NCBI GenBank assembly: GCA_041659005.1
Contig: JBAZZD010000002.1
Span: 25,817 to 89,816, forward strand
Length of the DNA stretch: 64,000 nucleotides
Direction: 5' to 3'
From: Minisyncoccota bacterium
GTDB taxonomy: Bacteria > Patescibacteriota > Minisyncoccia > UBA6257 > GWB1-50-10
Notes under the pieces: model-generated
The model's input: only the letters and a program-made list of their open reading frames with translations
Told to the model about the DNA's origin: nothing
Databases searched by the model: none
Shown: positions 1-16,021 of the stretch, in pieces
Position numbering within the stretch: position 1 is the first letter of the stretch
Layout of the letters: every line of letters starts with the position of its first letter
Position numbers and translations under genes: made by a program

Positions 1-435
1 AGCTCATCATTTAAAGATGGTGATATGATACCAACAAAATATACCTGTGATGGAGAAGACACCAATCCATTGCTTGAAATTCGTCATGTGCCAGATACCG
101 CAAAAAGTTTAGCGCTTATTATTGACGATCCTGATGCAACGCGTGGGGTTCCATGGGATCACTGGTTATTATGGAATATTCCGCCACGATCTCAATATAT
201 TCAAGAAGGCGTTGTTCCATCGGGGGCGATACAAGGAGTAGGAAGTAATGGAAAGGTAAAGTATATGGGTCCGTGCCCAGTAAAAGGGAAAGATCCACAC
301 CGATATGTATTTTCGTTATATGCACTTGATTGCGCATTGGAACTTACTGAGGGTTCAAAAAAAGATGAATTATTACGTGCGATGGAGGGACACGTTATCA
401 TGCGAGCAGAATTAACGGGGAAGTATGAGAGATAA
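1..435 (+). CDS. PEBP/YbhB-YbcL family protein (Raf kinase inhibitor-like), 5' partial at window edge
   Basis: Frame 1 is open from nt 1. The sequence DGDMIPTKYTCDGEDTNPLLEIRHVPD...DDPDATRGV.WDHWLLWNIP matches the bacterial PEBP pattern (compare the YbhB stretch [21 protein letters not shown]). Stop at 435. Confidence 0.7.
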   Translation, partial: SSSFKDGDMIPTKYTCDGEDTNPLLEIRHVPDTAKSLALIIDDPDATRGVPWDHWLLWNIPPRSQYIQEGVVPSGAIQGVGSNGKVKYMGPCPVKGKDPHRYVFSLYALDCALELTEGSKKDELLRAMEGHVIMRAELTGKYER

Positions 436-440
436 ACATT

Positions 441-516
441 AATTTCGAATGACGAATTTCTAATTTTGAATGAAAGGGAGAAAAAAATTTTAAATTACAA
501 ATTTTGAATTTCAAAT
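441..516. repeat. AT-rich dispersed repeat pair (AATTTCGAATGACGAATTTCTAATTTTGAAT + AAATTACAAATTTTGAATTTCAAAT)
   Basis: First motif at 441-471 matches 53833 and 58842; second at 493-516 matches the 31-mer family at 58729. Confidence 0.65.
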
Positions 517-534
517 AAAAAAGAGGGGAAAATT

Positions 535-999
535 ATGAAACAGCCGAAGAATGATTCTAAATATATTTGGACTACGCATGCGTGGGAAAAAATGCAACAG
601 TATGGAATTTCAGAACAGCGAGTAAAACGCATTGTTCGGTTTCCAAAAAGGACGGAGGAAGGAGTCCTTGATGGTGCGGTTGCGGTAATGTCTCCATGCG
701 GGAGATCCGCTGTAGGAAGACAACCATCGCATACAAGTGAGATGTGGGTGATGTATGTTCTTTTTGATGGAAATCAAAAAGGAATTTCGCCTGCCTGCGC
801 AGGCAGGAATGACGAAATTCGAAATCCTAAACAAGAAAAAGAGAAGAAGAATGAGAGGCCACTTGATAATATACAATCCTTTTTAGGAAATACAGGGAAG
901 AGATTTAAAATTATTACGGTGTGGCGTTATCCTGGAGTAAGTCCGGTGCGAGATGCAATTCCTGATGACGTTTTGTCTGAAATTAGAGCATTATTATAA
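535..999 (+). CDS. hypothetical protein, DUF4258-like N-terminus; reading frame passes through a dispersed repeat (782-826)
   Basis: N-terminal YIWTTHAWEKMQQYGISEQRVKRIV resembles the DUF4258 H..ERM..RGI motif. The ORF contains the GC palindrome plus AT-repeat halves. An intrinsic terminator follows. Confidence 0.4.
   Translation: MKQPKNDSKYIWTTHAWEKMQQYGISEQRVKRIVRFPKRTEEGVLDGAVAVMSPCGRSAVGRQPSHTSEMWVMYVLFDGNQKGISPACAGRNDEIRNPKQEKEKKNERPLDNIQSFLGNTGKRFKIITVWRYPGVSPVRDAIPDDVLSEIRALL
782..826. repeat. composite repeat inside ORF 535..999: GAATTTCG + CCTGCCTGCGCAGGCAGG + AATGACGAAATTCGAAAT
   Basis: The 18-bp perfect palindrome (790-807) sits exactly between the two halves of the AATTTCG|AATGACGAA motif seen intact at 441, 53833 and 58842. 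Confidence 0.65.
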
Positions 1000-1008
1000 A
1001 TTTAAAAA

Positions 1009-1040
1009 AGACGCGAAAGATATTTCGCGTCTCTATTTTT
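1009..1040 (+). terminator. rho-independent terminator
   Basis: Hairpin agacgcgaaa-gat-atttcgcgtct followed by ctattttt. Confidence 0.6.
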
Positions 1041-1368
1041 GAAAGAAAAGTTCCCAGAAAAAGAGATGTCGCAGCCTCCACAGGTTTGCACTATTTTTTT
1101 TCTTAATGAAATTAACAAGAATGAGCACATATTTTTGTTTTGGCAATTCCCGTTTTACTGGAATTTCCCTTTCCAACTCATTGTGACATAGTCGACATAT
1201 GTCGATTGTTTCACTATTCTCAAAAAACCTTTTTGGATATATATGGTGTTTTGATTTTACCCGCTCTCCTTTTGTTGTGTATGGTTTGTTACATGCACAG
1301 CAACGGGGAATAAATTTTCTTTTGTGGTGATCTTTTCTTTTTCCATATTTTCTTTTATGACGTCCCAA
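1033..1368 (-). CDS. HNH endonuclease family small protein
   Basis: CCACNKPY...SKHHIYPKRFFENSETIDICRLCHNELE gives the CxxC...HH..P...N...LCxxCH HNH motif; basic N-terminus. Confidence 0.5.
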   Translation of the reverse strand: MGRHKRKYGKRKDHHKRKFIPRCCACNKPYTTKGERVKSKHHIYPKRFFENSETIDICRLCHNELEREIPVKRELPKQKYVLILVNFIKKKNSANLWRLRHLFFWELFFQK

Positions 1369-1641
1369 TTCTCCTCCGCAATTTTATATATGGGAAAAGG
1401 AAGAACCAGAAAAGTGTCATTTGTGTCATTTTCTTTTTAATGACGCAACTTTTTGGATGGCTGCTTATTATCAGCCTTTTGTGATACCATCGCTCGGAAA
1501 TCATAGCTCCTATCACAAGATAAAAGAACAATACTACTGGCACAATCAAAAAAAGTAATTCCATAGCAACTCCTTTTATTTTTTCGTTTTTTTCTTTATT
1601 ATTTAAATGTTAATTGTACGTTCGTACGATACTATAAATTT

Positions 1642-2637
1642 ATGAAATTGTCCATAGGAATTGTTGGTATGCCAAATGTTGGAAAATCGACACTATTTAC
1701 CATTCTTACAAAACAAAATGTGACTGTTGCGAATTATCCTTTTGCGACCATTGATCCAAATGTTGGAGTTGTCCCTGTTCCTGATGAACGTCTTGATTTA
1801 CTTACCACTTTATCAAAGTCAAAGAAAACAATTCCTGCAGTGGTTGAATTTTATGATATCGCAGGGCTTGTGAAGGATGCACACAAGGGAGAGGGATTAG
1901 GGAACCAGTTTTTAGCGAACATTCGAGAATGTAAGGCAATTATACAGGTGCTCCGTTGCTTTAAAGATTCCGATATCATTCACGTTGAACAAACCACTGA
2001 TCCGGTTCGTGATTTAGATATTATTATAACGGAACTTATTTTTAAGGATCTTGATACAGTTATGAAGCGACTCAATAAGTGTGAAAAAGAAACGCGTGCA
2101 GGAGACAAGCAGGCATTACAAGATATAGAGGTATTACGAGCGGTAAAGAAAACACTTGAGAGTGGTGGACTCACAAAAGCATTTGCACATGAATTAATCA
2201 TGAAAGATCTTTCACTTCTTACCGCAAAAGAGCAGATGTTTCTTCTTAATGGTGACGAAGAAGATGTCCCATTGGAATTGAAAGAAAAAATAACCGAGTT
2301 GGGCGGACAATATATAATAATGAATCTTGGATTTATTGAAGATGTGTCTCCAATTATCGTGAAAGCATATGAAGTTTTAAATCTCATCAGTTTTCTCACT
2401 ACGGGGGAGGATGAAACTCGTGCGTGGACGATTGAGCGTGGTGCGAAAGCACCTGAGGCAGCAGGAACAATTCATACTGACTTTGAACATAAATTTATTC
2501 GGGCCGAGGTAGTGAATTATTCAAAACTCGTGGAAGCAGGAGGATGGAGTCAGGCAAAACAAAAAGGATGGCTCCGCTTAGAAGGGAAGGAATATGTTGT
2601 TCAAGATGGGGATGTGATGGAGATTAGACATGGATAA
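1642..2637 (+). CDS. ychF: ribosome-binding ATPase YchF (Obg-like)
   Basis: MKLSIGIVGMPNVGKSTLF...NYPFATIDPNVG, then a TGS-like C-terminus GDVMEIRHG. Confidence 0.9.
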   Translation: MKLSIGIVGMPNVGKSTLFTILTKQNVTVANYPFATIDPNVGVVPVPDERLDLLTTLSKSKKTIPAVVEFYDIAGLVKDAHKGEGLGNQFLANIRECKAIIQVLRCFKDSDIIHVEQTTDPVRDLDIIITELIFKDLDTVMKRLNKCEKETRAGDKQALQDIEVLRAVKKTLESGGLTKAFAHELIMKDLSLLTAKEQMFLLNGDEEDVPLELKEKITELGGQYIIMNLGFIEDVSPIIVKAYEVLNLISFLTTGEDETRAWTIERGAKAPEAAGTIHTDFEHKFIRAEVVNYSKLVEAGGWSQAKQKGWLRLEGKEYVVQDGDVMEIRHG

Positions 2638-2736
2638 ATTACCTGCGACAAACAACCAAAAACCTATAACTGAAGAGAAAAGAATGGAGAGGAGCAATAC
2701 TGTCTACTTCTTATTTTCTGTTTTATAATATAGTTA

Positions 2737-3495
2737 ATGTATGAATTAAAGTTGGATCAGTATCAAGGACCACTTGATAAGTTATTAGAACTTATTGAAT
2801 CAAAAAAGATGGAAATTGGCACTATAGCGCTTGCGAGTGTTACTGCAGATTTTTTGCATTACCTTGAAGGATTTAAAATTGATTTAGGAATTGATGAAGA
2901 TTCATTGAGTGAGCACGCACAATATGATGCTCCGCTCGAATTACTTGCGGATTTTCTTGTTGTTGCGTCTCGATTATTGCTTATTAAATCAAAAACACTT
3001 CTTCCTTCGCTTGAACTAACTCCTGATGAACAAGCAGAAATACAAGACTTAGAAGTTCGATTGAAATTGTATCAAGAATTTAAACGAACTCAAGAACACG
3101 TTCGTGCGTGTTGGAGCGATATGCCAAAAATGTATACTCGCGAATTTATGCTTTCTGCTCAAGTATTATTTTATCCGCCATCGAGTATTGGACCCAATGA
3201 ATTGTTAGGCGCAATACTCAAAATTTCTGGAGCGCTTGAATCTGCGATGACTCCAAAAGTCAGAGTAAAAAATCAAATTTTAAATCTTCGCACAAAGATT
3301 GAAGAAGTTATCGCGAAACTTACAAATATTCCTCAGAATTTGCGGGCGCTCCACGGGGAGGGGAATAGGACTGAACTTGTTGTGTTGTTTTTAGCGATAC
3401 TTCACCTTATTAAGCAACAAATCGTGAAAGTGGAACAAGTAGATCATTTTAGCGAAATCATGATTGCGAAGATGGATGCGTTAAAGGTAGAATAA
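2737..3495 (+). CDS. scpA: segregation and condensation protein A
   Basis: LDQYQGPLDKLLELIESKKMEIGTIALASVTADFLHYL matches the ScpA N-terminal pattern; lies immediately upstream of scpB. Confidence 0.8.
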   Translation: MYELKLDQYQGPLDKLLELIESKKMEIGTIALASVTADFLHYLEGFKIDLGIDEDSLSEHAQYDAPLELLADFLVVASRLLLIKSKTLLPSLELTPDEQAEIQDLEVRLKLYQEFKRTQEHVRACWSDMPKMYTREFMLSAQVLFYPPSSIGPNELLGAILKISGALESAMTPKVRVKNQILNLRTKIEEVIAKLTNIPQNLRALHGEGNRTELVVLFLAILHLIKQQIVKVEQVDHFSEIMIAKMDALKVE

Positions 3496-3498
3496 ATA

Positions 3499-4116
3499 GT
3501 GAGATATATGGAAAATATTGCAAAACTTGAAGCATTGCTGTTCTTTTATGGTGAGCCAGTTGATATGTCAGTGATTGCTCGAATTCTTGGAATTACATTG
3601 GAAGAATGTGAGAAAGAAGTTTCACATTATGAACAAATATTGAGTTCATCAAACGGACGAGGGCTTTTGATTTTACGAAAGGGAAATTCAATTCAGCTCG
3701 CAACTAAGCCAGAACTTAAAGAGATTGGTGAGGCAATTGTAAAAGATGAATTTCGTGAATCACTTACTCCGGCGGCACTTGAAACACTTGCGCTTGTTGC
3801 ATATCTTAGTCCAGTAACTCGAGCGACCATTGATTATATACGTGGAGTAAATTCTAGTTATTCAATGAGGAATCTCTCGCTTCGTGGGCTTGTCGAACGT
3901 GGAGAGGAAAAGGGCGCGTCATTTCGTTATTCTCCCACACAAGAGTTTTTAAAACATATTGGTGTACAGCACGTAAAAATGTTACCAGAATATGAGCGAT
4001 ATCATTCGTTACTTCAAACATTCGCTCGAACAATGGAGGAAGTTTCGGTTTCTGAACATGAAGAGAAAAATCCAGAAACGCCATTTGATGAAGTACCGAA
4101 AGAAAAAGCTGAATAA
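3499..4116 (+). CDS. scpB: segregation and condensation protein B
   Basis: LEALLFFYGEPVDMSVIARILGI...RGLLILRKGNSIQLATKPEL matches the ScpB winged-helix pattern. Confidence 0.8.
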   Translation: MRYMENIAKLEALLFFYGEPVDMSVIARILGITLEECEKEVSHYEQILSSSNGRGLLILRKGNSIQLATKPELKEIGEAIVKDEFRESLTPAALETLALVAYLSPVTRATIDYIRGVNSSYSMRNLSLRGLVERGEEKGASFRYSPTQEFLKHIGVQHVKMLPEYERYHSLLQTFARTMEEVSVSEHEEKNPETPFDEVPKEKAE

Positions 4117-4121
4117 TACAC

Positions 4122-5045
4122 ATGAAATCGCATGTTCAATTTTTTCTACTCATCTGTCTCCTTATTGTTTCAGTTGTAATCTCTAACCTTCTTTTTAAAA
4201 AAGATGAACCTATAAGGAATGGTGTTGAGCAAGAGAACAAGGTGATTGTTGAAAAAATCAAACAAAAAAAATATCCAACACGAGATTGGAAAGTTTCTGA
4301 TCCAATAATTGATGCAGAAAGTGCAATGATATATTCACTTGATTCAAACTTTTCATATCTAAATTATCAAACATACAAACAATGGCCAATTGCGTCAATC
4401 ACAAAGTTACTGACAACGGTAGTGTTTATTGAAGACATAGGAATTCGTAAAAAAGTTCCAATGACAAAAACAGCACTTGAGACAGAAGGTTTATCGGGTG
4501 AATTTAAAAGTGGTGAGGTATATTCCGGACAGGACTTTATAACGATAATGTTGCTTGCGTCATCAAATGATGCAGCCACCGCGATCGAAGAGGTTGCTGG
4601 TGGGCGTGAAAAATTTGTTTTGTTATTAAATGCAAAAGCAAAAGCAATTGGAATGAATGATACCTATTTTGAAGATGCGTCAGGACTTTCTCCAAAAAAT
4701 GTTTCCACGTCAAATGATCTTATAAAACTTGCGCGATATATTGCGGAAAAACATCCAGAAATTTTGAGTTGGACGCGATTGCAAAGTTTCTTTGCTCAGT
4801 CAACAAACAGCTCAGAAAGCAGAGTCATTTATAATGTAAACCCGTTTGTAAAGGACTTTCCGTTTTTGGGGGGAAAGACGGGAACCTCACCCGAGGCGCG
4901 AGAAAATGTACTTGGGTTCTTCACTTTTCGAGGTGAACGTGTTGTCTGTATAATCTTAGGAAGTTATGATAGGGTAAACACGAAGGAAAAGATATTTAAT
5001 TGGGTACAGTCGGCGTATCCACAAGAAATTAAGACAATACATTAA
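4122..5045 (+). CDS. D-alanyl-D-alanine carboxypeptidase (S11 family, PBP5-like)
   Basis: Signal/TM N-terminus; SITK (SxxK), SSND (SxN) and GGKTGTS (KTG) motifs. Confidence 0.8.
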   Translation: MKSHVQFFLLICLLIVSVVISNLLFKKDEPIRNGVEQENKVIVEKIKQKKYPTRDWKVSDPIIDAESAMIYSLDSNFSYLNYQTYKQWPIASITKLLTTVVFIEDIGIRKKVPMTKTALETEGLSGEFKSGEVYSGQDFITIMLLASSNDAATAIEEVAGGREKFVLLLNAKAKAIGMNDTYFEDASGLSPKNVSTSNDLIKLARYIAEKHPEILSWTRLQSFFAQSTNSSESRVIYNVNPFVKDFPFLGGKTGTSPEARENVLGFFTFRGERVVCIILGSYDRVNTKEKIFNWVQSAYPQEIKTIH

Positions 5046-5051
5046 TCATAT

Positions 5052-6098
5052 ATGGTAGCGTTTGAAGCAATTAGAGTTCTTATGTTGTTTGCCCTCTCAT
5101 TTGTGGTTGCTCTTATTATTACTCCGATTGTATTGCGACTTCTTTTAAAGTTTGGGATAAAGAAGAAAAACATCCGTGATGCGGCTACCGCACCCATATT
5201 TCATCAATTTCATAAAAATAAAGGAGAAACGCCAACGATGGGCGGAGTCATCATTTGGGGGACGGTCGTAATTCTTGCATTATTATTTTTTATTTTTGGG
5301 AAATTATTTGGTGGATTTGCAAATTATTTTAATTTTGTAAGTAGATCAGAAACGTATCTCCCGCTTGGGTATCTTTTATTTGCTGCGATCGTTGGTTTAG
5401 TTGATGATTTTTTGGGTGTACTTCGTATTGGGCCAAAGGGAGGGGGGCTTAGCATGCGATACAAGATTATCATGTACACCGTTGTCTCTGCGGTTGGCGC
5501 ATGGTGGTTTTATTTTCGGTTGGGCTGGAACACACTCTATATTCCGTTTATCGGAGATATAACTATTGGATGGTGGTATTTCCCTTTATTTATGTTTGTA
5601 ATTGTTGCTTCTGCATTTTCAACGAACGAGACCGATGGTCTTGATGGACTTGCAGGAGGAACGCTTTTCTTTATCTTTGGAGCGTTTGCAGTTATTGCTT
5701 TTACAATCAAACATTTCGATCTTGCCGCAATGAACGCGGTGATTCTTGGTGCTCTTCTGGCTTTCTTATGGTTTAACATCTATCCTGCGCGTTTTTTTAT
5801 GGGGGATACCGGTTCAATGTCGCTAGGAATTACCGTTGGAGCAATGGCAATGTTAACCAACACGGTATTCTTTTTACCATTTTTTGGATCAATTCTTGTA
5901 TTTGAATCAGTGACAGTAATTATTCAAATGATTAGCAAAAAAGTGAGAAAAAAGAAAATCTTTCTTTCTACGCCGATTCATCATCACTTTGAGGCTCTCG
6001 GATGGCCAGAAACTCAAATTACAATGCGTTTTTGGTTTATAACGGCAGTAACTACCACAATCGGTCTTACACTATTCTTTATCGCTCGGTTTATATAA
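5052..6098 (+). CDS. mraY: phospho-N-acetylmuramoyl-pentapeptide transferase
   Basis: Multi-TM protein with NETDGLDGLAGG and FMGDTGSMSLG motifs. Confidence 0.9.
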   Translation: MVAFEAIRVLMLFALSFVVALIITPIVLRLLLKFGIKKKNIRDAATAPIFHQFHKNKGETPTMGGVIIWGTVVILALLFFIFGKLFGGFANYFNFVSRSETYLPLGYLLFAAIVGLVDDFLGVLRIGPKGGGLSMRYKIIMYTVVSAVGAWWFYFRLGWNTLYIPFIGDITIGWWYFPLFMFVIVASAFSTNETDGLDGLAGGTLFFIFGAFAVIAFTIKHFDLAAMNAVILGALLAFLWFNIYPARFFMGDTGSMSLGITVGAMAMLTNTVFFLPFFGSILVFESVTVIIQMISKKVRKKKIFLSTPIHHHFEALGWPETQITMRFWFITAVTTTIGLTLFFIARFI

Positions 6099-6118
6099 TC
6101 AATAATTTAATTACATAT

Positions 6119-7075
6119 ATGGATCGCTTTTTTCACCATTATTTTTTAAGAAAGAACAAAAGAGAAGAAATTCTTGAAAATAAGGAAATCTTGAAATGTG
6201 ATCAGGCCATATTGAATGTAGACCAGATTTTAAAAGATGAACAAATTGAATTTATTGCAGAAGAGTCTCTAAGTAAAAAAATTACGCAAAAGGTTTTTGA
6301 GACCTTGCCGCAAAAAATAAAAACTGCTTGCAAAAAAACTGCAGACGAAAACCTTATTGAGAGAAAAGAAGTGGAAGAGAGAAGAAATATAAAAGTAGGA
6401 TCAAATTCGCCAGAATTTATAAAGCTAAAAGATGATGGTTCAGTTGTTTTTAAATCAAAAGAAGGAGAGTTAGACAATTTGCGCACAGCAGTTAAAAAGG
6501 GAACTTATTATCGTCGCGAACGGGCGAGTTATATTGTGGATCGATTTTTTGAATTTGATATGGTGCCAACAACTACAATAAAAGAGATTAAGGATGAGAT
6601 TGGATCGGCTCAACGATTTATTGAAGACGCAAGGGAGTTTTGTGAAATTGATTATGAAAGCAAACAAAAGTACAAATCAGAAATAGCAAAACTTTTTATT
6701 TTTGATTATATTATTTGGAATTCGGATCGTCATTCGAGTAATTTTCTTGTGAAGGAAGATAAGTTGTACGCAATTGATAATGGGCTTTCGTTTGGAAATG
6801 ATAGATTTAAACCGTTTATGATTGATAGTCCCATCGATTTCAATTTTAAGGAAGATTTTATTTTAAAAATAAATGAAATTGCAAAAAATGATAAAATATT
6901 GGATATTATGCGACTCTCTCTTGAGGAACATCTTCCCGAAGAAGAGATAAATGCGTGTATTTGGAGAATAAAAAATATTGCAAAGATTTTAAACGACAAA
7001 AGAATTTTAAGTAAAAAAATTGAGGACCGGAGTAAAATTTCAGGAATGTTTATTTATAATTATGAGAAAAATTAA
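6119..7075 (+). CDS. phosphatidylinositol 3-/4-kinase family protein, PI4K type II-like
   Basis: Track ORF 6002..7075 overlaps mraY; the in-frame ATG at 6119 (MDRFF) is the likely start. GSNSPEFIKLKDDGSVVFKSKEGE (Gly-rich loop plus Lys), ERASYIVDRFFEFDMVPTT, DYIIWNSDRHSSNFLV (DRHxxN catalytic loop) and AIDNGLSFG (IDNGL activation motif) are co-linear with PI4KII-alpha. Confidence 0.75.
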   Translation: MDRFFHHYFLRKNKREEILENKEILKCDQAILNVDQILKDEQIEFIAEESLSKKITQKVFETLPQKIKTACKKTADENLIERKEVEERRNIKVGSNSPEFIKLKDDGSVVFKSKEGELDNLRTAVKKGTYYRRERASYIVDRFFEFDMVPTTTIKEIKDEIGSAQRFIEDAREFCEIDYESKQKYKSEIAKLFIFDYIIWNSDRHSSNFLVKEDKLYAIDNGLSFGNDRFKPFMIDSPIDFNFKEDFILKINEIAKNDKILDIMRLSLEEHLPEEEINACIWRIKNIAKILNDKRILSKKIEDRSKISGMFIYNYEKN

Positions 7076-7322
7076 TATTAAAAAACTTCAAAACAATGGT
7101 TCAACGTCAATTATAGGAACTTTTTCTCTTGATCATAATGGTGTCGTTTCTTATGTTGGAAATGAAACGTTTTGGGAAAATGTTCAGCTGGAGGGGGTCT
7201 ACACTGTAAAAAATGGGGAAGCACGAACATTTTTTCCTAAAGACGGCTCCGCGTTTTTTGATAATTTAAAGTATCACTTTAAGTCCGCTTATTTATTTGC
7301 AGAGGAAGAACAAGAAAAATAA
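7062..7322 (+). CDS. hypothetical small protein
   Basis: In-frame ATG (MRKINIKK) within track ORF 7020..7322, overlapping the previous gene's end by 14 nt. Confidence 0.4.
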   Translation: MRKINIKKLQNNGSTSIIGTFSLDHNGVVSYVGNETFWENVQLEGVYTVKNGEARTFFPKDGSAFFDNLKYHFKSAYLFAEEEQEK

Positions 7323-7349
7323 TTTTGTTTTTACTATAATGAATGTACT

Positions 7350-8855
7350 ATGGCTGTTCTCATAAAAAATGGCTTGGTATATGACGGATTAGGAAATGTC
7401 CCAGAACAGAAGGACATTCTTATTCGTGGACAGATCATTTCAAAAATTGGGACACTGTCTCGAACACGTGGAGATGAGGTAATTGATGCGAATGGGATGG
7501 TTATAACTCCCGGATGTATTGATGTGACATCGCACTCTGATCATCATTATTCTCTTTTTTATGAGCCCAACCAAGAAGATTTTCTTTCGCAGGGAATAAC
7601 TTCAATCATTGGTGGAAATTGCGGAGTTTCTCTTGCTCCATTGTTTGGGGTCCTTCCTGATATCGCTGCGGAGTGGGGAAGCAATGCTGGGATAAATGCA
7701 AGTTGGAATACAATGCGAGATTTTCTTTTATATTTTGAAAAAAAACCACTGGGAGTGAATTTTGGAACACTGGTGGGGTACACCGGACTTCGAAAGGGGA
7801 TTACAAAGAATGTATTTAGAGATCTGACTGATGGAGAATTAAATTCAATATCACGAATGATTGAAATTTCAATTCGTGAGGGAGCACTTGGTGTCTCATT
7901 TGGATTGGAACATATCCATGGGGTTCGAACTCCTTTCTATGAAGTTGAACATATTGCAAAGATGGTCGCACATTGTGGTGGAGTCTGTGCTATTCACATG
8001 CGTGACATGAAAGAAAAAATTCTTGAGTCAGTTCAAGAATGTGTTGAAATTTCTGAGCACTCGGGAGGTAATATACATATTAGTCATATGCAGCCAATAA
8101 AAAAATATGGCAAACAATATGCTGATGCGCTTGCGTTTATTTCGGCGCACGCAAATGCTGCTCATGTGCACTTTGATGTAAATACATTTGAAACAATTCC
8201 GTTACTTTTGTATGAATTACTTCCCGAATGGGCACAGGATGAGTCATTTGAACGAATGTGCGAAGGTATTCAATCAAGTGTATTTTCGTCTCGGATTATC
8301 GAATTTATTAAAAATAATGTCGCGCGAGATTATATAATTAGTCATGTTCCTGATAAAGCGTTGAAATTTCTTGAAGGAAAGTCAATTCGAGAACTTGCCC
8401 TCCGTGAAAACAAATCATATGAATCGATGATTCTCCAATTGATGATTGTAACAAGATTTAGGGCTACTGTGAGCGCTAAAATAGTTGATATGCCGTCAGT
8501 ACAAAATGCAATATATAACTCACAATCAATAATTTCCTCAAATGGTGCTGCGTTTGGCAAAAAGGAGTTTAAGCAGCATCAAGGGACAAATACAATTCCA
8601 GATTTCTTCTCCTTAATACGACAAAACAAGACTATTCCTTTTGAGAAAGCAGTTGAAAAAGTGACGGCTATACCAGCAAAAAAATTTGGAGTTAAAAAAA
8701 GAGGAGGTATTATTGAGGGAAATTATGCGGATATTGTTGTTTGGTCGGACGATAGACCAATGCACGTTTTTATAAATGGATCACAATCATGGAATTTTGA
8801 AAATGGATTTTGCGGAGTGCGTAATGGAATGGTAATTACCTCAACAGTTTCATGA
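7350..8855 (+). CDS. amidohydrolase family protein (N-acyl-D-amino-acid deacylase / D-aminoacylase-like)
   Basis: LIKNGLVYDG...ILIRGQIISKIG...VIDANGMVITPGCIDVTSHSDHHY fits the D-aminoacylase N-terminal metal-binding pattern. Confidence 0.7.
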   Translation: MAVLIKNGLVYDGLGNVPEQKDILIRGQIISKIGTLSRTRGDEVIDANGMVITPGCIDVTSHSDHHYSLFYEPNQEDFLSQGITSIIGGNCGVSLAPLFGVLPDIAAEWGSNAGINASWNTMRDFLLYFEKKPLGVNFGTLVGYTGLRKGITKNVFRDLTDGELNSISRMIEISIREGALGVSFGLEHIHGVRTPFYEVEHIAKMVAHCGGVCAIHMRDMKEKILESVQECVEISEHSGGNIHISHMQPIKKYGKQYADALAFISAHANAAHVHFDVNTFETIPLLLYELLPEWAQDESFERMCEGIQSSVFSSRIIEFIKNNVARDYIISHVPDKALKFLEGKSIRELALRENKSYESMILQLMIVTRFRATVSAKIVDMPSVQNAIYNSQSIISSNGAAFGKKEFKQHQGTNTIPDFFSLIRQNKTIPFEKAVEKVTAIPAKKFGVKKRGGIIEGNYADIVVWSDDRPMHVFINGSQSWNFENGFCGVRNGMVITSTVS

Positions 8856-9982
8856 TAAAAAAATTACGAATTCCTAAAAGTTCTTCTCCTGATTTTGTTT
8901 TTTTGGGATTTCTTGCGGTACTTATTATATTTGGACTTGTAATTCTTACAAGCGCGTCATCTGATCTCGCAAAAACAGAGACCGGGGACAGTATGTATTA
9001 TTTGAAACATCAAATAACAAATGGATTGTCAGTAGGTATAATTGGATTTCTGATTGGATATTTTCTTTATTATCGAATATGGGAAAAAATTTCAGTTCCG
9101 CTTCTTGTTCTTGGAATTGTTCTTCTGTTTCTCGTTTTTACCCCGTTAGTTGATATTCAAAAAGGGGGTGCAAGATGGATTGATTTTCAAATTTTTAAAT
9201 TCCAACCTGGAGAATTTATTAAATTAGCATTTCTTGTCTACCTTTCTGCATGGGTTGGTAAAAATCAAGAGCGGAGCAAAAGTTTTATTGGTGGGTTTAT
9301 TCCGTTTTCACTTCTTGTTGGGGTAGTGATGATATTACTTATATTACAACCAGCAACTTCAACTGCTGCTCTTGTTTTCTTCTCATCACTTATCACTTAT
9401 TTTATTGCGGGTGCAAAACCTAAGTTTTTTATTGGTATGATCCTTATTGGCGCCATCTCTCTTGGCGTACTTATTTTTGCTGTCAAAAATAATGACGGCG
9501 AAAATTATCGGTTAAAACGTGTTGCAACTTTTTTACACCCAGAAAGTGATCCACTTGGTTCTGGGTGGCACATAAATCAAGCGCTTAATGCAATTGGATC
9601 TGGTGGTATATTTGGCGTTGGGTTTGGGAAATCAACTTCAAAACTTTATTTTCTTCCTGAGCCAATAGGAGATTCAATCTTTGCGGTTATCGCCGAAGAA
9701 CTTGGATTTATTGGTGCTGTTGGTTTTCTTTTCTTTTTCCTTGCATTTTTATGGCGTGGATTTAAAATTGCTACACGCGCACCTGACAATTTTGCTAAGT
9801 TTTTGGTTGTTGGGTTTATGAGTATTCTTGGTCTCCAAGCGTTCGTAAACATTGCCGCCATATCAGGAGTTATTCCGTTAACTGGTGTGCCATTGCCATT
9901 TGTGAGTTATGGCGGTACTGCACTCGCAGTATTTCTTACTATGTCAGGCATTATTGCGAATGTATCAAAATATAAACGATAA
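8852..9982 (+). CDS. ftsW: SEDS-family peptidoglycan glycosyltransferase FtsW/RodA
   Basis: Ten TM segments; GDSIFAVIAEELGFIG and PLPFVSYGGT motifs; 4-nt ATGA overlap with the upstream gene. Confidence 0.85.
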   Translation: MIKKLRIPKSSSPDFVFLGFLAVLIIFGLVILTSASSDLAKTETGDSMYYLKHQITNGLSVGIIGFLIGYFLYYRIWEKISVPLLVLGIVLLFLVFTPLVDIQKGGARWIDFQIFKFQPGEFIKLAFLVYLSAWVGKNQERSKSFIGGFIPFSLLVGVVMILLILQPATSTAALVFFSSLITYFIAGAKPKFFIGMILIGAISLGVLIFAVKNNDGENYRLKRVATFLHPESDPLGSGWHINQALNAIGSGGIFGVGFGKSTSKLYFLPEPIGDSIFAVIAEELGFIGAVGFLFFFLAFLWRGFKIATRAPDNFAKFLVVGFMSILGLQAFVNIAAISGVIPLTGVPLPFVSYGGTALAVFLTMSGIIANVSKYKR

Positions 9983-9984
9983 TT

Positions 9985-11136
9985 ATGAGAAAAAATAATG
10001 TAGTAAGAATTGGTATCGCTGGTGGTGGAACGGGTGGACATATCTATCCGCTTCTTGCGGTATGCGATGCATTTTCAAAGAAACGTGGACCCTATGATGA
10101 CACCGTCATTGAATTTCACTATTTTGGAAGACCTGGAATCTATCAAAATGAATTTGATTTTAGAAGCATTCGCGCTCATTCAATTATTGGAAGTAGATTA
10201 CGTCGATATGCTTCAATTCAAAATGTTTTTGATATTCCCAAATTTTTTATAAGCATAGTACAGGCATTATTTTCGCTCCTTTTGGTCATGCCTGATGTTG
10301 TTTTTTCAAAAGGTGGACCTGGATCAATTCCTGTCGTCTTTGCTGCATGGTTTTACAGAATTCCGATAGTAATTCATGAATCTGATGCAGTTCCCGGACT
10401 TGCGAATAGAGTTGCTGCACGATTTGCAAGAAAAATTTGCATTTCATTTCCTGAGTCAAAAGAATTTTTTGATGAAAAGAAAGTTGTAGCGACGGGAAAT
10501 CCGATTCGCGATGAGCTTATAAAAAATAGAATGTCAAAAGTTGGAGCAAAAAACTTTTGGAGAATGGATGAGCATCTTCCACTCGCGCTTGTTGTTGGTG
10601 GCTCGCAGGGGTCGCAACGCATTAATTCATTTATAACAGAAAATCTTGAAGAATTACTTAAAGACGTACAAATACTACATCAGGTAGGACAGAGTAATTA
10701 TCAAGAAATTGAAATGTCCATGCGTGAAATTATGGCGCTTGTTCCGCGGGAACTTCATGGGAGGTATCGGGCAGTTTCGTTTATGGATGTCGAAGAAATG
10801 AAAAATGCAATGACTGCTGCTGATGTGATTATTTCTCGTGCCGGTTCTGGCGCAATTTTTGAGATTGCGTCATTTAAGACTCCAACAATTCTTATTCCAC
10901 TTGAAGAGTCTGCAGGAGATCATCAAAAAGTAAATGCATATGCATATTCAAAAACGGGTTATGCATTCGTGCTTGAGGAAGAGAATATGACGTTGCACAC
11001 ACTTCAATCTCGTATTCGTGCACTCATTTCTCCAGAATTTACACCAAATAATAGAGGAGAAAAAACAGATTTATTCTTTTTTTCTCAATCTGCCGAACGT
11101 ATTGCAGATGAGGTTATGGGCCTTATTTCAGGGTGA
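9985..11136 (+). CDS. murG: UDP-GlcNAc--MurNAc-pentapeptide-undecaprenol GlcNAc transferase
   Basis: IGIAGGGTGGHIYPLLAV N-terminus and GT28 C-terminal domain. Confidence 0.9.
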   Translation: MRKNNVVRIGIAGGGTGGHIYPLLAVCDAFSKKRGPYDDTVIEFHYFGRPGIYQNEFDFRSIRAHSIIGSRLRRYASIQNVFDIPKFFISIVQALFSLLLVMPDVVFSKGGPGSIPVVFAAWFYRIPIVIHESDAVPGLANRVAARFARKICISFPESKEFFDEKKVVATGNPIRDELIKNRMSKVGAKNFWRMDEHLPLALVVGGSQGSQRINSFITENLEELLKDVQILHQVGQSNYQEIEMSMREIMALVPRELHGRYRAVSFMDVEEMKNAMTAADVIISRAGSGAIFEIASFKTPTILIPLEESAGDHQKVNAYAYSKTGYAFVLEEENMTLHTLQSRIRALISPEFTPNNRGEKTDLFFFSQSAERIADEVMGLISG

Positions 11137-11158
11137 CTATTGTAAAATATGAGGTATA

Positions 11159-12553
11159 ATGGGGATTATGAGTGTCCGTGTACGTTTTGCGCCCTCGCCA
11201 ACAGGATTTTTGCATATTGGAGGGGTTAGAACTGCATTGTTTAACTGGCTCTTTGCCAAGCGCGAGGGCGGAGTGTTTATTTTGCGTATTGAGGATACAG
11301 ACAAAGAGCGATCTGAAAAGCGTTTCGAAGATGATATTCTAAAGAATTTTGAATGGTTCGGAATCAGTTCTGATGAACCAATCTGGCGACAAAGCGAAAG
11401 AATTGATGTGTATAAAAAATATCTTTTACAACTTTTAAATAAAGGGAAGGCGTATTATTGTTTTTGCAAAGAAGATGAGCTTGAATCTGAATATCAAGCA
11501 CAAATGAGTCAGGGAATCGCTCCAAAGTATAGTGGACGATGTCGCTCCATTTCTCGTGAGGATGGAGAACTACGTGCAAAAACTGAGCGGGCGGTGATAC
11601 GAATAAAAATGCCAGAGCAGTTAATACAATTTACGGATTCAGTTCGTGGAAAAGTAAGTTTTGATACAAAATTATTTGGTGACATTATTATTGCAAAAGG
11701 GCTTGAAGAACCATTATATAATTTTGCTGTAGTTGTCGACGATCATGAAACAAAAATTACTCACGTAATTCGCGGTGAGGAACATTTACCAAATACACCG
11801 AAACAAATTGTTATTCAAAATGCACTTGGGTTTCCAAGTGTTCAATATGGACACCTTCCGTTAATTTTGGACACAAGCAAAAAGAAACTTTCAAAGCGAT
11901 TTTTACAAGATTCATTGAATCAATATAGGGCGGATGGTTATCTTCCTTCGGCAATTCTTAATTTCCTCGTTTTGTTGGGGTGGCATCCAGAAAATGATCG
12001 CGAGATATTAACAGTTGAAGAGATGAAAAAGGAATTTTCATTAAAGAGAGTTCAAAAGGCAGGGGCGGTATATAACACAGAGAAACTCGATTGGTTAAAT
12101 GCGATGCATATACGAATGGTTCCACTTCCAGATCTTGTTGAGCAGGTTCTTCCTTTTGTTCCTGAGATCTGGAAGGTAGATACTACAAAACTTACTCGAG
12201 TTGTTGAGTTCACGCGAGAGCGAATGAAAAAATTGAGTGATTTTCCTCTTGAGGCAAAACCATTTTTTGAAATTGCTTCGTATGACGTTAAGCTTCTTAT
12301 GTGGAAAGATTTTCCTTTATCTGATTCAAAGAAGCATTTATTGGAGATTTTAACTCTCATTAAGAGTGGGGGAGACAGTAGTGTAAAAATAATGGAATAT
12401 GCAAACAAGGAGGGGAAGGGAAATGTGTTGTGGCCTCTTCGTGTTGCATTTTCTGGTCTTCAAAATTCACCTGGGCCACTAGAGCTCCTTTCAGTATTTG
12501 GACCGATTGAGGCAGAAAAAAGAATAATTGATGCGATTCAAAAGATTTCTTAA
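11159..12553 (+). CDS. gltX: glutamate--tRNA ligase
   Basis: RFAPSPTGFLHIGGVRTALFNW (HIGH motif) and KLSKR (KMSKS motif). Confidence 0.9.
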   Translation: MGIMSVRVRFAPSPTGFLHIGGVRTALFNWLFAKREGGVFILRIEDTDKERSEKRFEDDILKNFEWFGISSDEPIWRQSERIDVYKKYLLQLLNKGKAYYCFCKEDELESEYQAQMSQGIAPKYSGRCRSISREDGELRAKTERAVIRIKMPEQLIQFTDSVRGKVSFDTKLFGDIIIAKGLEEPLYNFAVVVDDHETKITHVIRGEEHLPNTPKQIVIQNALGFPSVQYGHLPLILDTSKKKLSKRFLQDSLNQYRADGYLPSAILNFLVLLGWHPENDREILTVEEMKKEFSLKRVQKAGAVYNTEKLDWLNAMHIRMVPLPDLVEQVLPFVPEIWKVDTTKLTRVVEFTRERMKKLSDFPLEAKPFFEIASYDVKLLMWKDFPLSDSKKHLLEILTLIKSGGDSSVKIMEYANKEGKGNVLWPLRVAFSGLQNSPGPLELLSVFGPIEAEKRIIDAIQKIS

Positions 12554-12554
12554 T

Positions 12555-13886
12555 ATGCAAAAAATACCCAGCATACTATTTGCAATGAGTGTGGTGATAG
12601 TTTTTGCATTTTTTATAACGCAAAAAACATTAGCGCAATCTTCTCCTTTTTCATTTTTCTCTAATGCGCTTGGTGATCTAGAAAAAAGTATTGAAGAAAA
12701 AAACAACGAGCTTCAAAAAATAAAAGAACAAAGAGACTCATTACAACGCTCACTTGATGTAGTGAGTGAAGTTGGGAATTCGTTAAAAAAGGACATTCAA
12801 GTATATAATACCAGCATTAATCAGCTAAATCTTTCGATAAAATCAAGTGCGGTAAATATTGAAAAACTTGATATGGAAATTGATGTTTTGGGAAATGACG
12901 TTCGTGACATGCAGGACGAAATTGAAACAAAGCAGATAGCGATTGGGCGGTTAATAGGGGAGATACAACAGGCCGACAATGAATCATTCATTGAACGAAT
13001 TTTGAAAAGTGAATCATTGAGCGAAAGTATCGCACAAGCGGAAAGTATAAAAACATTAAATTCTGCTTTGTCAACTAGTATAAAAGATTTGCAGTCATTA
13101 CGAACCGAATATAAAAATAAAATTGAATCAACAAAACAAAAGAAGGGACAAAAAGAAACACAAAAAGATACACTATTAACTTTGCAACAAATAACTGCGG
13201 AACAAAAAATAGAAAAACAGAAAATTCTTGAAGTTACAAAATCACAAGAACAGCAATATGCAAAACAGCTTGAAGAGCTTGATAAACGTCAAGAAGAAAT
13301 AGGAAATGCAATTTCTGAAATTGAAGACAGGTTGCGTACGTCGTTCAATCCAAATCTTTTGCCCATACAGCGTTTTGGTGTTTTGAATTTTCCACTTGAA
13401 TCACCATACGTTACGCAATGCTATGGAAAGACTCCCTCTGCACTAAAATTATACAAGACAAAATCTCATAATGGTCTTGATCTTGGAACTCCTGTTGGAA
13501 CACCAGTTTTTGCTGCTGAATCAGGAAAAATTGCAAAGGTAGGAAATAACGATCGAGGAGCATCTCGGTGGTCAAAATATCAATACGGAAAATATATTGT
13601 TATTAAACATGATAATAATCTCGCAACGCTCTATGGACATCTGTCTTCGCAAATAGTAAAAGAAGGAGCGCAAGTAGAAAAGGGTGCTCTTATCGGATAT
13701 TCCGGAAATACTGGGTACTCGTTTGGGCCTCATTTACATTTTGGTGTACTGTGGGCGCCTACACTACAATATAAAGCAATACCACCGGCAGCAGGAGTAG
13801 TACCAATTGGTGTTACGATTGATCCAGCAACATATTTACCCTCAATTGCTGGATATCCACATGGAAGGGATTCTGGATGTAAATAA
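12555..13886 (+). CDS. M23 family metallopeptidase with N-terminal coiled coil (EnvC/LytM-like)
   Basis: TM start, long coiled coil, then LYGHLSS...GNTGYSFGPHLHFGV M23 active site. Start taken at the ATG at 12555 just after the gltX stop; track start 12528 overlaps gltX. Confidence 0.8.
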   Translation: MQKIPSILFAMSVVIVFAFFITQKTLAQSSPFSFFSNALGDLEKSIEEKNNELQKIKEQRDSLQRSLDVVSEVGNSLKKDIQVYNTSINQLNLSIKSSAVNIEKLDMEIDVLGNDVRDMQDEIETKQIAIGRLIGEIQQADNESFIERILKSESLSESIAQAESIKTLNSALSTSIKDLQSLRTEYKNKIESTKQKKGQKETQKDTLLTLQQITAEQKIEKQKILEVTKSQEQQYAKQLEELDKRQEEIGNAISEIEDRLRTSFNPNLLPIQRFGVLNFPLESPYVTQCYGKTPSALKLYKTKSHNGLDLGTPVGTPVFAAESGKIAKVGNNDRGASRWSKYQYGKYIVIKHDNNLATLYGHLSSQIVKEGAQVEKGALIGYSGNTGYSFGPHLHFGVLWAPTLQYKAIPPAAGVVPIGVTIDPATYLPSIAGYPHGRDSGCK

Positions 13887-13897
13887 CAATTTCGTAT

Positions 13898-14329
13898 ATG
13901 AAAAAAATAATTTTATGTAACATCGCAGTAACATTCTTGGTTCTCAATTTCTTTTTCTATTCTAACAAAGTAAATGCGCAGATGATTAATTCGTCGAGTT
14001 CACTGGAATCAATAGTAAAAAGTTTTTTGCCTGATCCCGCAAAAGAAGTTCTCGACATTGCAAATGATGCACGAAAGAAAATCGAATCGAAAATTGGAAT
14101 TGATTTTGAGAAGATGACCGCTAATTGGGCATTGTCTGGGATAAATGCCGGATCTTCACAGAAAATAACCCCAGAATCTACAATAAACCTATTAGAACAG
14201 GTTTCAGGGCTCACAAGTACGGTAAATCCGGCCAACACGCCTGATTTTGTCGGTAGAGTTACGGATATCATCCGACAATTTATAAAATATATTTTTGATA
14301 TCATACGAAATATCCTTGGTATGATTTAG
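13898..14329 (+). CDS. secreted hypothetical protein
   Basis: Signal peptide MKKIILCNIAVTFLVLNFFFYSNKVNA. Confidence 0.5.
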   Translation: MKKIILCNIAVTFLVLNFFFYSNKVNAQMINSSSSLESIVKSFLPDPAKEVLDIANDARKKIESKIGIDFEKMTANWALSGINAGSSQKITPESTINLLEQVSGLTSTVNPANTPDFVGRVTDIIRQFIKYIFDIIRNILGMI

Positions 14330-14745
14330 GAGGGAATTTATAAAAAATCCACATATATCAATTAAAAAGATTTGGTATGTATTTGAAATGTTTGTACTCG
14401 CATTAAAAAGAGTGCATATGTCGTAAAGAGCCACTTATGGAAAACTTTCGTCGTATAGGAGACGCGCCTTTTATTGCGATGGCTATGTCGCAAAAGGTAT
14501 ATTGTGCGACATATCTAAATATCAAAATACCTCTCTTTGTGCACTTCCCCTGGGTTTCCCTATATCCTTTTAAGGTGATCATTTTTTCTCTAATCTGTTG
14601 TATTGCTTGTATTTTTATTCCCAATTTTTATTTTTGAATTATTTCTATATATAAAATTGTTTTTTGAATTGAACATTTTGCTGTTATTTCTGGGTCGGGG
14701 TACTCCCCCATATAATGTGCATTTATCTGTTGTGATGATTATCTA

Positions 14746-14776
14746 GAATAAAAAATCCAGCATTATATGCTGGAAA
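14746..14776 (-). terminator. rho-independent terminator (minus strand)
   Basis: ccagcatataatgctgg hairpin followed by attttttatt when read on the minus strand. Confidence 0.55.
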
Positions 14777-14779
14777 TTG

Positions 14780-15049
14780 TTATTTGTATGTGAATGGAAT
14801 ATTTTTTGTAGTTTGGAAGTGTCCGGGACGTGCAGATATCCCTTCGCGCAACGTGATTTTGCCATTACCGAGCACGTCGTCGTTTGCTGCAGACTTAAGA
14901 TGTTTCTGCGCGTGCTTTTTCGCCTCGGTAGCGTTATTTGCTTGGAACGTGTGGACAAAAATTTCATTTTTCCGTCCCAATATGGTTGTTTTTCCTATTG
15001 GTTTTTTAATGCCGCGTTCTTTCAACGGGTATGCAAGTTTGTAGTACAT
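14780..15049 (-). CDS. hypothetical small basic protein
   Basis: 89-aa ORF with a terminator directly downstream; no family recognised. Confidence 0.45.
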   Translation of the reverse strand: MYYKLAYPLKERGIKKPIGKTTILGRKNEIFVHTFQANNATEAKKHAQKHLKSAANDDVLGNGKITLREGISARPGHFQTTKNIPFTYK

Positions 15050-15250
15050 ATTTATCTCCTTTTAATTAATGTACATTTTGTACCTTACTATTTATATTGA
15101 ATTATGTCAATAAATAAAATAAAAAATCACTGGTACAATTGAATGATATAGTTATGAAAATTAATTTAAACAACACGAAGTCGCAAATCATATCAGAAGA
15201 TGTTTTTGTAATTTGTTTTGATTGCATAAACATTTCCTGTCTTTAACGGG

Positions 15251-16021
15251 ATGGACGATTTTAAAACCGCGGATGAATTTAAGGATGCGTGCGGATATAC
15301 ACTTGATAATGATGTGTGGTATCCTCGCGTAACAAAGATTGTTGAAATAAAAGCGAAACCGGCACTCTACTATTTTTATGCGAAAATGCCAAACTATCGT
15401 GCGGCAGAGCAGGTGAAGGAACAGTCAGCAGTAGAAGGAACAATGATTCATGAGGCAGCCGAGGCGATTCTTATGGGACAGAAACCTGTTATTCCCTACT
15501 CTATTACTCCATCAATGTCTGCGTTCGCTGAATATCTTTTAGAAAACAATATTGAAGTTGATCCAAAACATGTTGAGGTACGACTTACGAGTGATAAACA
15601 TAGATATGCAGGAACACTTGATGCAATTGCACGAATTGGCGGAAAACTTGGAATACTTGATATTAAAACCTCTTTAGAAATCTATCGAGATTATAATATT
15701 CAAACTTCTGCATATTTTTACGCAATGAAAGATTTAGTTCCAGAGCTTTCTACTCGCTGGATATTGCGAATTGATCAAAGTCGGCCTTGTATGAATTGTG
15801 GCGCAGTACTTCGGGCAAAAGGTGGACGCGAACAGGTAAAGATAAAATGGGATGATCCGTTTATGCGCTCGTGTAAACACGAGTTTGGCCCACTTGTTGG
15901 GCATATTGAATTAAAGGAACTTCATAATGTTGAAAATGATTTTGAGGCATTTCTTGGTGCAAAACGATTATGGGAATGGGAACACGAAGAATGGCTCAAA
16001 AAAATTGGATATTTGAAATGA
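15251..16021 (+). CDS. PD-(D/E)XK nuclease superfamily protein (RecB/Cas4-like fold) with Cys cluster
   Basis: GTLDAIARIGGKLGILDIKTS gives a D...D/E-x-K motif; Cys cluster CMNCGAV...SCKHEF. Confidence 0.55.
   Translation: MDDFKTADEFKDACGYTLDNDVWYPRVTKIVEIKAKPALYYFYAKMPNYRAAEQVKEQSAVEGTMIHEAAEAILMGQKPVIPYSITPSMSAFAEYLLENNIEVDPKHVEVRLTSDKHRYAGTLDAIARIGGKLGILDIKTSLEIYRDYNIQTSAYFYAMKDLVPELSTRWILRIDQSRPCMNCGAVLRAKGGREQVKIKWDDPFMRSCKHEFGPLVGHIELKELHNVENDFEAFLGAKRLWEWEHEEWLKKIGYLK

Follow-up and report, generated by a model that had tools for sequence, protein, structure and literature searches.

The window analysed here is a stretch of 64,000 nucleotides from a Minisyncoccota bacterium (assembly GCA_041659005.1, contig JBAZZD010000002.1, positions 25,817 to 89,816 of the forward strand). 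Between mraY and an amidohydrolase-like gene it carries a cassette of two genes (6099..7334, + strand, 1236 bp), which encode an atypical kinase of 318 aa with a fold like that of the type II phosphatidylinositol 4-kinases (PI4KII; 6119..7075, + strand) and a small partner protein of 86 aa (7062..7322, + strand), which we propose to be its immunity protein or antitoxin. It is highly probable that the two genes form an inserted, autonomous module that is unrelated to the division and cell wall (dcw) genes around it. The reading we favour goes further: the pair would be a toxin (or effector) kinase with its cognate immunity protein or antitoxin, inserted among cell-wall genes by chance, and we give this an even chance of being correct. 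It is based on the homology and fold of the kinase, its catalytic residues, the linkage of kinase and partner, the insertion, the patchy distribution and the fusions seen in phages.

The kinase gene starts with an ATG at 6119, with 20 nt between it and the mraY stop (6098), and runs intact through 318 codons to the stop codon at 7073-7075. Its product is 100% identical to WC842_00815, a "hypothetical protein" from an NCBI metagenome-assembled genome of Candidatus Paceibacterota (Patescibacteria/candidate phyla radiation, CPR). Residues 1 to ~75 are disordered and lineage-specific, and the kinase core spans residues ~80-300. A preliminary description of this DNA had recognised four motifs in the order typical of type II phosphatidylinositol 4-kinases (PI4K), and all of them are indeed present: GSNSPEFIKLKDDGSVVFKSK, ERASYIVDRFFEFDMVPTT, DYIIWNSDRHSSNFLV and AIDNGLSFG. 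Across an alignment of 26 kinase homologs the catalytic residues K112, E134, D203, R204, N208 and D220 are invariant. K112 (codon 6452..6454, + strand), the ATP-binding lysine of an FK(S/P)K motif, corresponds to the FKPK lysine (FKPKNEE) of PI4K2A. The catalytic loop D203-R-H-S-S-N208 (DRHxxN; 6725..6742, + strand) aligns with DRGNDN of PI4K2A and PI4K2B, and A-I-D220-N-G-L-S-F (6770..6793, + strand), the Mg-binding start of the activation loop and equivalent of DFG, is matched by AIDNGLAF in PI4K2A. Within this last motif A218 and D220 are invariant, and I219, N221, G222 and F225 are nearly so.

Profile searches lead to the same enzymes. Pfam PF00454 (PI3_PI4_kinase) matches residues 157-255 with 48.8 bits (E 1.2e-12), well above its gathering cut-off of 27.1, and a profile of the kinase family finds PI4K2A (E 3.5e-16) and PI4K2B (E 8e-16) in the PDB. 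The two human enzymes are matched motif by motif (FKPKxxE, YxxExAxxLVD..L.L.VP.T, GSxQxF, DYIIxNxDRxxxN and AIDNGLxF), and PI4KIIalpha/beta are the best match of the kinase both by predicted fold and by profile. Homology of the kinase core, the FKPK lysine, the DRxxxN and IDNGL motifs and the PI4KII fold are all found together. A missing PF00454 match or an unrelated fold would have spoken against the kinship claimed in the preliminary description; neither was encountered, and therefore the kinase is a real relative of type II PI4K. Judged by alignment and model, it is a true homolog of these enzymes and a member of PF00454, and with its catalytic residues intact it looks active.

Other kinase families are more distant. 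The best NCBIfam match is TIGR03843, the actinobacterial PI3/4-kinase-like SCO1664 family, which covers most of the kinase core (residues 82-288, 64.8 bits) but does not reach its cut-off of 172.4 and differs in taxa and gene neighbourhood. The SCO1664 family is itself uncharacterised, and its matches in the literature come without functional data. Pfam Fam20C (23.4 bits, cut-off 26.8) and HipA_2 (17.6 bits, cut-off 27) stay below threshold, HipA_C was not matched in the Pfam scan, and the HipA-type Gly-rich loop and DxHxKN catalytic motif are absent. From Fam20, CotH and CtkA the kinase differs by this sub-threshold Fam20C score, by the lack of a signal peptide as far as can be seen by eye, and by its biological context.

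The second gene (7062..7322), which the preliminary description mentioned just as a small ORF, has its first 14 nt in common with the end of the kinase gene. For its product a beta-beta-beta-alpha-beta-beta-alpha-beta domain is predicted (AlphaFold, predicted local distance difference test (pLDDT) 92), and it carries the motif FPKDGxxF(L/F)xxLKxxFKS(G/A)YLxA. At least 372 cluster representatives belong to the family; with few exceptions they are 84-97 aa long, and every representative that bears a source name is from Patescibacteria. Neither Pfam nor PADLOC contains a family for it. The copy of the window and its sister L001 have Phe and Ser in place of two cysteines that are nearly invariant in the family, C21 and C30 (alignment numbering); possibly, a disulfide or redox feature of the partner was lost in this lineage.

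How faithfully partner and kinase travel together was apparent when the genomic sites of nine kinase homologs and eleven GTDB genome matches were scanned with hidden Markov models (HMMs) of both proteins. In the window, L001/L002, L003, L004, L005, L008-L012, L014, L016 and L017 the kinase gene is followed directly by that of a partner homolog, at spacings from a 14-nt overlap to a gap of ~60 nt. The window and L001/L002 share their flanks, and therefore the linkage is kept in 12 independent bacterial contexts. The genes flanking the pair differ in nearly every bacterial locus; they include a uracil phosphoribosyltransferase (UPRTase) with an ABC transporter, a glycosyltransferase with a Tricorn-like protein, a sigma factor with DapB, and ribosomal proteins. 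In two loci the pair is adjoined by other conflict modules, HicA next to the ribosomal proteins (L008) and AbiEi/AbiEii (L009). The partner is the sole conserved neighbour of the kinase. Two further bacterial loci end too early for the presence of a partner to be judged. Two irregular copies of the kinase were also seen: a Saccharibacteria contig (L013:5831-5965) ends with a second kinase fragment behind the first, and at L018:4507-5213 the kinase is split by a frameshift, where a pseudogene or an assembly error is possible.

Within the partner, S75 and Y77 of the FKSGY motif are invariant in 71 bacterial sequences and belong to a conserved loop on the surface that precedes the last strand. 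Together with the tight gene pairing, this would lead to the assumption that the partner is a dedicated substrate, phosphorylated by the kinase on S75 or Y77, and that the pair is a switch like SpoIIAB/SpoIIAA. However, phage homologs of the partner do not keep S75 and Y77 in position and read FSNSS, YHGSR, YTGTY or FSGSY instead. Moreover, a substrate gene beside an effector that is delivered with the capsid makes little biological sense, neither a phosphatase nor a downstream output gene is linked, and the cassette is mobile and patchy, unlike core signalling modules. We therefore consider a substrate switch improbable.

The preliminary description had called lipid kinases of this family rare in bacteria. 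This can no longer be upheld: when 1.84 billion cluster representatives (50% identity) were searched exhaustively with a profile, 598 kinase representatives came up at E<=1e-30, and at E<=1e-10 there were 4657. Stand-alone proteins of 250-300 aa make up the majority, and a few giants have two to four copies of the domain. P0029 (3184 aa) has four tandem kinase domains and a DUF4347, and P0094 (1327 aa) has two kinase domains; from their architecture, both look like polyvalent or polymorphic-toxin-like proteins. Kinase repeats and DUF4347 were the only domain fusions in the long bacterial homologs.

The family also extends into phages. A scan of IMG/VR found the kinase domain in 41 viral loci, where in most cases it forms the C-terminal part of a 630-1050-aa protein. 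The N-terminal parts of these fusions are Phage_Mu_F (L104, L106, L114, L115), Phage_min_cap2 (SPP1 gp7-like; L110, L139) and LPD1 (L128), and upstream of the fusions lie the genes for the large terminase subunit and the portal protein. MuF proteins are minor constituents of the head, and the MuF/gp7 head protein is classically encoded at this place. Of 37 non-redundant phage cases, 14 have a partner homolog right after the kinase according to the bacterial HMM, and 20 according to an iterated HMM; these homologs keep the FPKDGxxFxxxL core. Among known phage protein families, PHROGs gave one match, to a family of unknown function (phrog_3162), and the GenBank phages gave one weak match only.

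Several of the viral loci have features of their own. In four of them (L103, L108, L123, L124) there are two tandem kinase genes with a separate small ORF behind each, which resembles duplicated cassettes of polymorphic toxin and immunity genes. At L133:3807-6584 a single MuF-like protein has the kinase followed by an ADP-ribosyltransferase exotoxin domain, and in the L104:1077-3191 locus a separate ADP-ribosyltransferase protein is encoded upstream of the MuF-kinase gene. At L105:795 and L110:5752 a different small ORF follows the kinase; it is unrelated to the partner, shares the motif IP(A/S)R(G/L)SNLSR(V/I)(I/V)F and, judged by its position, may represent an alternative immunity family.

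The linkage and overlap of the two genes fit a toxin with its immunity protein, but they fit equally well a partner that is an obligate helper (an activating subunit, chaperone or specificity factor) rather than an inhibitor, comparable to a split-off N-subdomain of HipA. The pair would then be an effector without self-toxicity, for example a phage kinase for anti-defence or host takeover that was domesticated by Patescibacteria. The partner does weakly resemble N-subdomain 1 of HipA, which is integral to active HipA, and three kinases without a recognisable partner (L006, L007, L015) suggest that the kinase alone is tolerated. Kinases that are injected by phages and reprogram the host are known as well, such as the T7 kinase (PMC5512222). 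On the other side, a helper would have to be injected together with the kinase into the target cell, yet the partner is a separate protein that is not fused to the head protein, and the 150 best kinase representatives include no natural fusion of kinase and partner. The small ORF directly downstream is normally the immunity gene in polymorphic-toxin systems, those with MuF included (PMC5576092). Altogether, a helper is an unlikely explanation, if a somewhat better one than the substrate switch.

That the cassette is a foreign element at its present site is evident from a comparison with relatives. The gene order in the window is dacA-like S11 peptidase, mraY, kinase, small ORF, amidohydrolase-like gene, ftsW and murG; a Pfam scan of the ORFs confirmed the neighbours given in the preliminary description. 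The left flank, mraY (5052..6098, + strand; Glycos_transf_4 108.8 bits and MraY signature), and the right flank, the amidohydrolase-like gene (7350..8855, + strand; Amidohydro_3 40.9 bits), are outside the module. In this clade the amidohydrolase-like gene is the neighbour that mraY had ancestrally. With MraY as anchor, the neighbours in the window were mapped onto 80 related metagenomic loci (MraY 58-95% identical). In 48 of these the order ScpB-DacA-MraY-amidohydrolase-FtsW-MurG(-GltX-M23) is conserved, with the amidohydrolase directly after mraY in most; other MraY loci continue with a class II aminoacyl-tRNA synthetase and MreB, with phosphoglycerate kinase (PGK) and a DHH protein, or with an aminotransferase. 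The cassette is found at the mraY site in the window and in only one of the 80 loci, L022, which is of the same lineage as L001/L002. It is absent from L023/L024, whose MraY is 95% identical, and from the 77 other MraY loci, and the more distant kinase homologs lie in unrelated neighbourhoods.

The boundaries of the insertion are exact. By blastn, positions 4001-6098 and 7335-9997 of the window align to L023/L024, where the two blocks are separated by 13 nt, and 6099-7334 has no counterpart. After the mraY stop, L023/L024 have the 13 unaligned nt and then continue with the equivalent of window 7335 onward, which lies shortly before the amidohydrolase gene. The GC content of the cassette is lower (30.6%) than that of its flanks (37-38%). 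When the window is compared with L001, the synonymous divergence (dS) is 0.32 for the kinase and 0.56 for the partner, compared with 0.92-1.10 for six flanking genes. The ratio of nonsynonymous to synonymous divergence (dN/dS) is 0.27 for the kinase and 0.15 for the partner, and therefore both are under purifying selection. The low dS suggests an exchange between the lineages of the window and L001 after their split, or unusual codon constraints at 30.6% GC; as far as these divergence values indicate, the cassette was exchanged more recently than the host genomes diverged. Taken together, the absence from relatives, the shift in GC, the dS and the dN/dS lead us to conclude that the cassette was acquired horizontally and kept by selection. 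Two adjacent, co-oriented genes with a patchy distribution and signs of horizontal transfer are what is seen in type II toxin-antitoxin systems; conserved synteny with mraY/ftsW/murG in related genomes, the mark of a dcw component, was not observed.

This has consequences for the functional link that had been drawn from the genomic position. The kinase was thought to sit where murD usually is and to be connected to envelope biogenesis, and a shared mraY-kinase-ftsW synteny was to be looked for in related genomes. In this clade murD follows mraY in none of the 80 loci, and therefore the kinase does not fill a "murD slot". The mraY-kinase-ftsW arrangement was found only in the window and L022, against 48 loci with the amidohydrolase after mraY, so that the site is occupied only in the window and one sister lineage (L001/L002/L022). 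A functional link to the dcw cluster, or a replacement of murD, was rejected on the basis of the 80 MraY loci, the exact insertion boundaries and the lack of a Mur ligase in the scans of the window.

Two observations concern the neighbourhood itself. Reading by eye all ORFs of 50 aa or more in 1-16000, and comparing ten large ORFs further on with Pfam, we saw no Mur ligase (murC/D/E/F). The only dcw genes present are the dacA-like gene, mraY, ftsW and murG, and therefore the dcw cluster is fragmented in this organism. The amidohydrolase-like gene between mraY and ftsW is a clade-wide fixture of the reduced cell-wall cluster, present in 48 related loci (among L023-L101) at 29-84% identity. Its best NCBIfam match, PRK09061, is far below cut-off, and the usual HxH metal motif looks altered (IDVTSHSDHH).

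The preliminary description had suggested a lipid or protein kinase linked to the envelope or to host interaction. In this view the protein would be a lipid (PI4K-like) or other small-molecule kinase that serves the envelope or host membranes and is functionally tied to the division/cell-wall cluster. Its closest structural and sequence match, PI4KIIalpha/beta, is indeed a lipid kinase, and Fam20B, which has the same fold, phosphorylates sugars. Zeta-toxin kinases, which phosphorylate a peptidoglycan precursor, also occur fused to MuF domains (PMC5512222), and therefore a cell-wall precursor is conceivable as the target of a toxin. However, the mraY/ftsW synteny is limited to two sister lineages and is the result of an insertion. 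PI4KII is held at membranes by a Cys-rich palmitoylation insert (CCPCC) of its N-lobe. The kinase of the window lacks this insert: the stretch between K112 and E134 (SKEGELDNLRTAVKKGTYYRR) has no Cys, and PI4K2A has ~20 extra residues there in the HMM alignment. Compared with PI4K2A and PI4K2B it is a bacterial and phage-borne protein of the ~260-aa core only, and it also lacks their ~20-aa insert before IDNGL, the long loop between catalytic loop and IDNGL. No transmembrane segment or signal peptide was seen in kinase or partner when the sequences were read by eye, and as far as the sequence tells, the kinase is not membrane-anchored. Its genomic contexts are those of conflict systems, with a small partner gene beside it, and inositol or lipid genes are linked to it in none of the genomic neighbourhoods of its homologs. 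In our opinion, a lipid substrate is unlikely, and the view of an envelope kinase as a whole is very doubtful and ranks below both the helper and the substrate switch.

In the reading as a toxin-immunity cassette, the horizontally acquired genes would encode a cytoplasmic, catalytically competent atypical kinase of the PI4KII/Fam20 fold and an 86-aa cognate binding partner, the latter translationally coupled to the kinase through the 14-nt overlap. The kinase would phosphorylate a cellular target, by which the cell is arrested or reprogrammed, and the partner would bind the kinase and hold it inactive in the cell that encodes both. The physical binding of the two proteins, the inhibition by the partner, the toxicity of the kinase and the nature of its substrate are what we infer. 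In phages, where MuF/minor-capsid proteins bear the kinase domain at their C-terminus, it would be cargo that is packed into the capsid and enters the cell along with the DNA, and immunity would come from the partner gene that directly follows. The stand-alone pair of Patescibacteria would be a toxin-antitoxin system of the HipT/HipS or hipJS type, or a defence module, and its place between mraY and amidohydrolase/ftsW would be an accident of insertion without any functional link to the cell wall. Our guess, by likeness to HipA/HipT, CtkA and the T7 kinase, is that the target is a protein Ser/Thr; it may also be a small molecule or a lipid.

The closest mechanistic precedents are HipT/HipS of the HipBST system and the hipJS modules (PMC6581861, PMC8262856, PMC10627512, PMC9325769). 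In hipJS modules a short core kinase is followed downstream by a HipS-like putative antitoxin of ~100 aa (PMC8262856), and HipT is neutralised when HipS binds directly to it at the Gly-rich loop (PMC10627512). In contrast to HipT, the kinase of the window has motifs of the PI4KII type and neither a GAQEK-like Gly-rich loop nor DxHxKN. The partner has no sequence similarity to HipS and its structural likeness is marginal, and the cassette has no third gene for a HipB-like DNA-binding protein. Also close are the MuF polymorphic toxins (Jamet et al. 2017, PMC5576092) and the polyvalent proteins (Iyer et al. 2017, PMC5512222): like them, the phage relatives carry the kinase as C-terminal cargo. 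The kinase of the window, however, stands alone with a disordered N-terminus, has no match to MuF and is encoded on a bacterial chromosome and not in a prophage. A delivery domain of the MuF type occurs only in the phage homologs L104, L106, L114 and L115 (MuF) and L110 and L139 (min_cap2), and the small downstream gene typical of MuF toxin/immunity systems is present in the window at 7062-7322. The kinases reported in polyvalent and MuF proteins are truncated Ser/Thr/Tyr kinases and zeta toxins, which are of other types than the one described here (PMC5512222), and the term "kinase" was not found in PMC5576092. A PI4KII-like kinase is mentioned as cargo in neither of the two papers.

Several observations weigh against a toxin-immunity cassette. 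In 3 of 16 informative bacterial loci, the L006, L007 and L015 already mentioned, the kinase has no recognisable partner, which is odd for a lethal toxin unless other types of immunity exist, and 17 of the 37 phage cases are without a partner homolog even with the iterated HMM. Unlike most type II antitoxins, the partner has no detectable DNA-binding domain. The PADLOC library gave only marginal matches to the kinase (E ~1e-4), confined to the catalytic loop. At the ends of the cassette, direct, inverted or terminal repeats, a target duplication, a promoter or a terminator were not found above chance, and the cassette has no recognisable recombinase. Binding of the two proteins and toxicity are deduced from gene context. 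Finally, the relatives of this fold act on a lipid (PI4KII), on secreted proteins (Fam20C) or on a sugar (Fam20B), and the substrate may belong to any of these classes.

A broader proposal, which we put forward tentatively and with less confidence than that of a toxin-immunity pair in the window itself, is that the two proteins represent a widespread new kinase toxin-immunity family. It would consist of a compact toxin of the PI4KII/Fam20 fold and an immunity protein of a previously unnamed 85-aa fold, and would occur as capsid-delivered MuF cargo in tailed phages and as a stand-alone toxin-antitoxin or defence cassette in Patescibacteria. In the literature searched on bacterial PI4KII-like kinases, on PF00454 in bacteria and on SCO1664/DUF3090/TIGR03843 we found no description of the kinase family, the partner or the MuF fusion. 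We rate the toxin fold and the immunity family as new, within the familiar logic of toxin-immunity cassettes.

If the reading as a toxin-immunity pair is right, bacterial toxin systems would have a third kind of kinase beside those of the HipA and zeta types, and with it a new immunity protein, and the head proteins of phages would serve to bring a PI4KII-like kinase into cells. A tempting mistake is corrected at the same time: the closeness to mraY and ftsW in this genome carries no functional information. For Patescibacteria, whose biology is largely unknown, the cassette would be a testable conflict module. The family would also be a large and compact prokaryotic sister group of the type II PI 4-kinases, useful for questions on the origin of this eukaryotic lipid kinase family and for structural work on a minimal version of its fold. 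If the broader proposal holds, the nearest prokaryotic relatives of the eukaryotic type II PI 4-kinases, and perhaps of the Fam20 secretory kinases, would be weapons in the conflict between phages and bacteria, which would point to a conflict-system origin of these eukaryotic kinases of membrane traffic.

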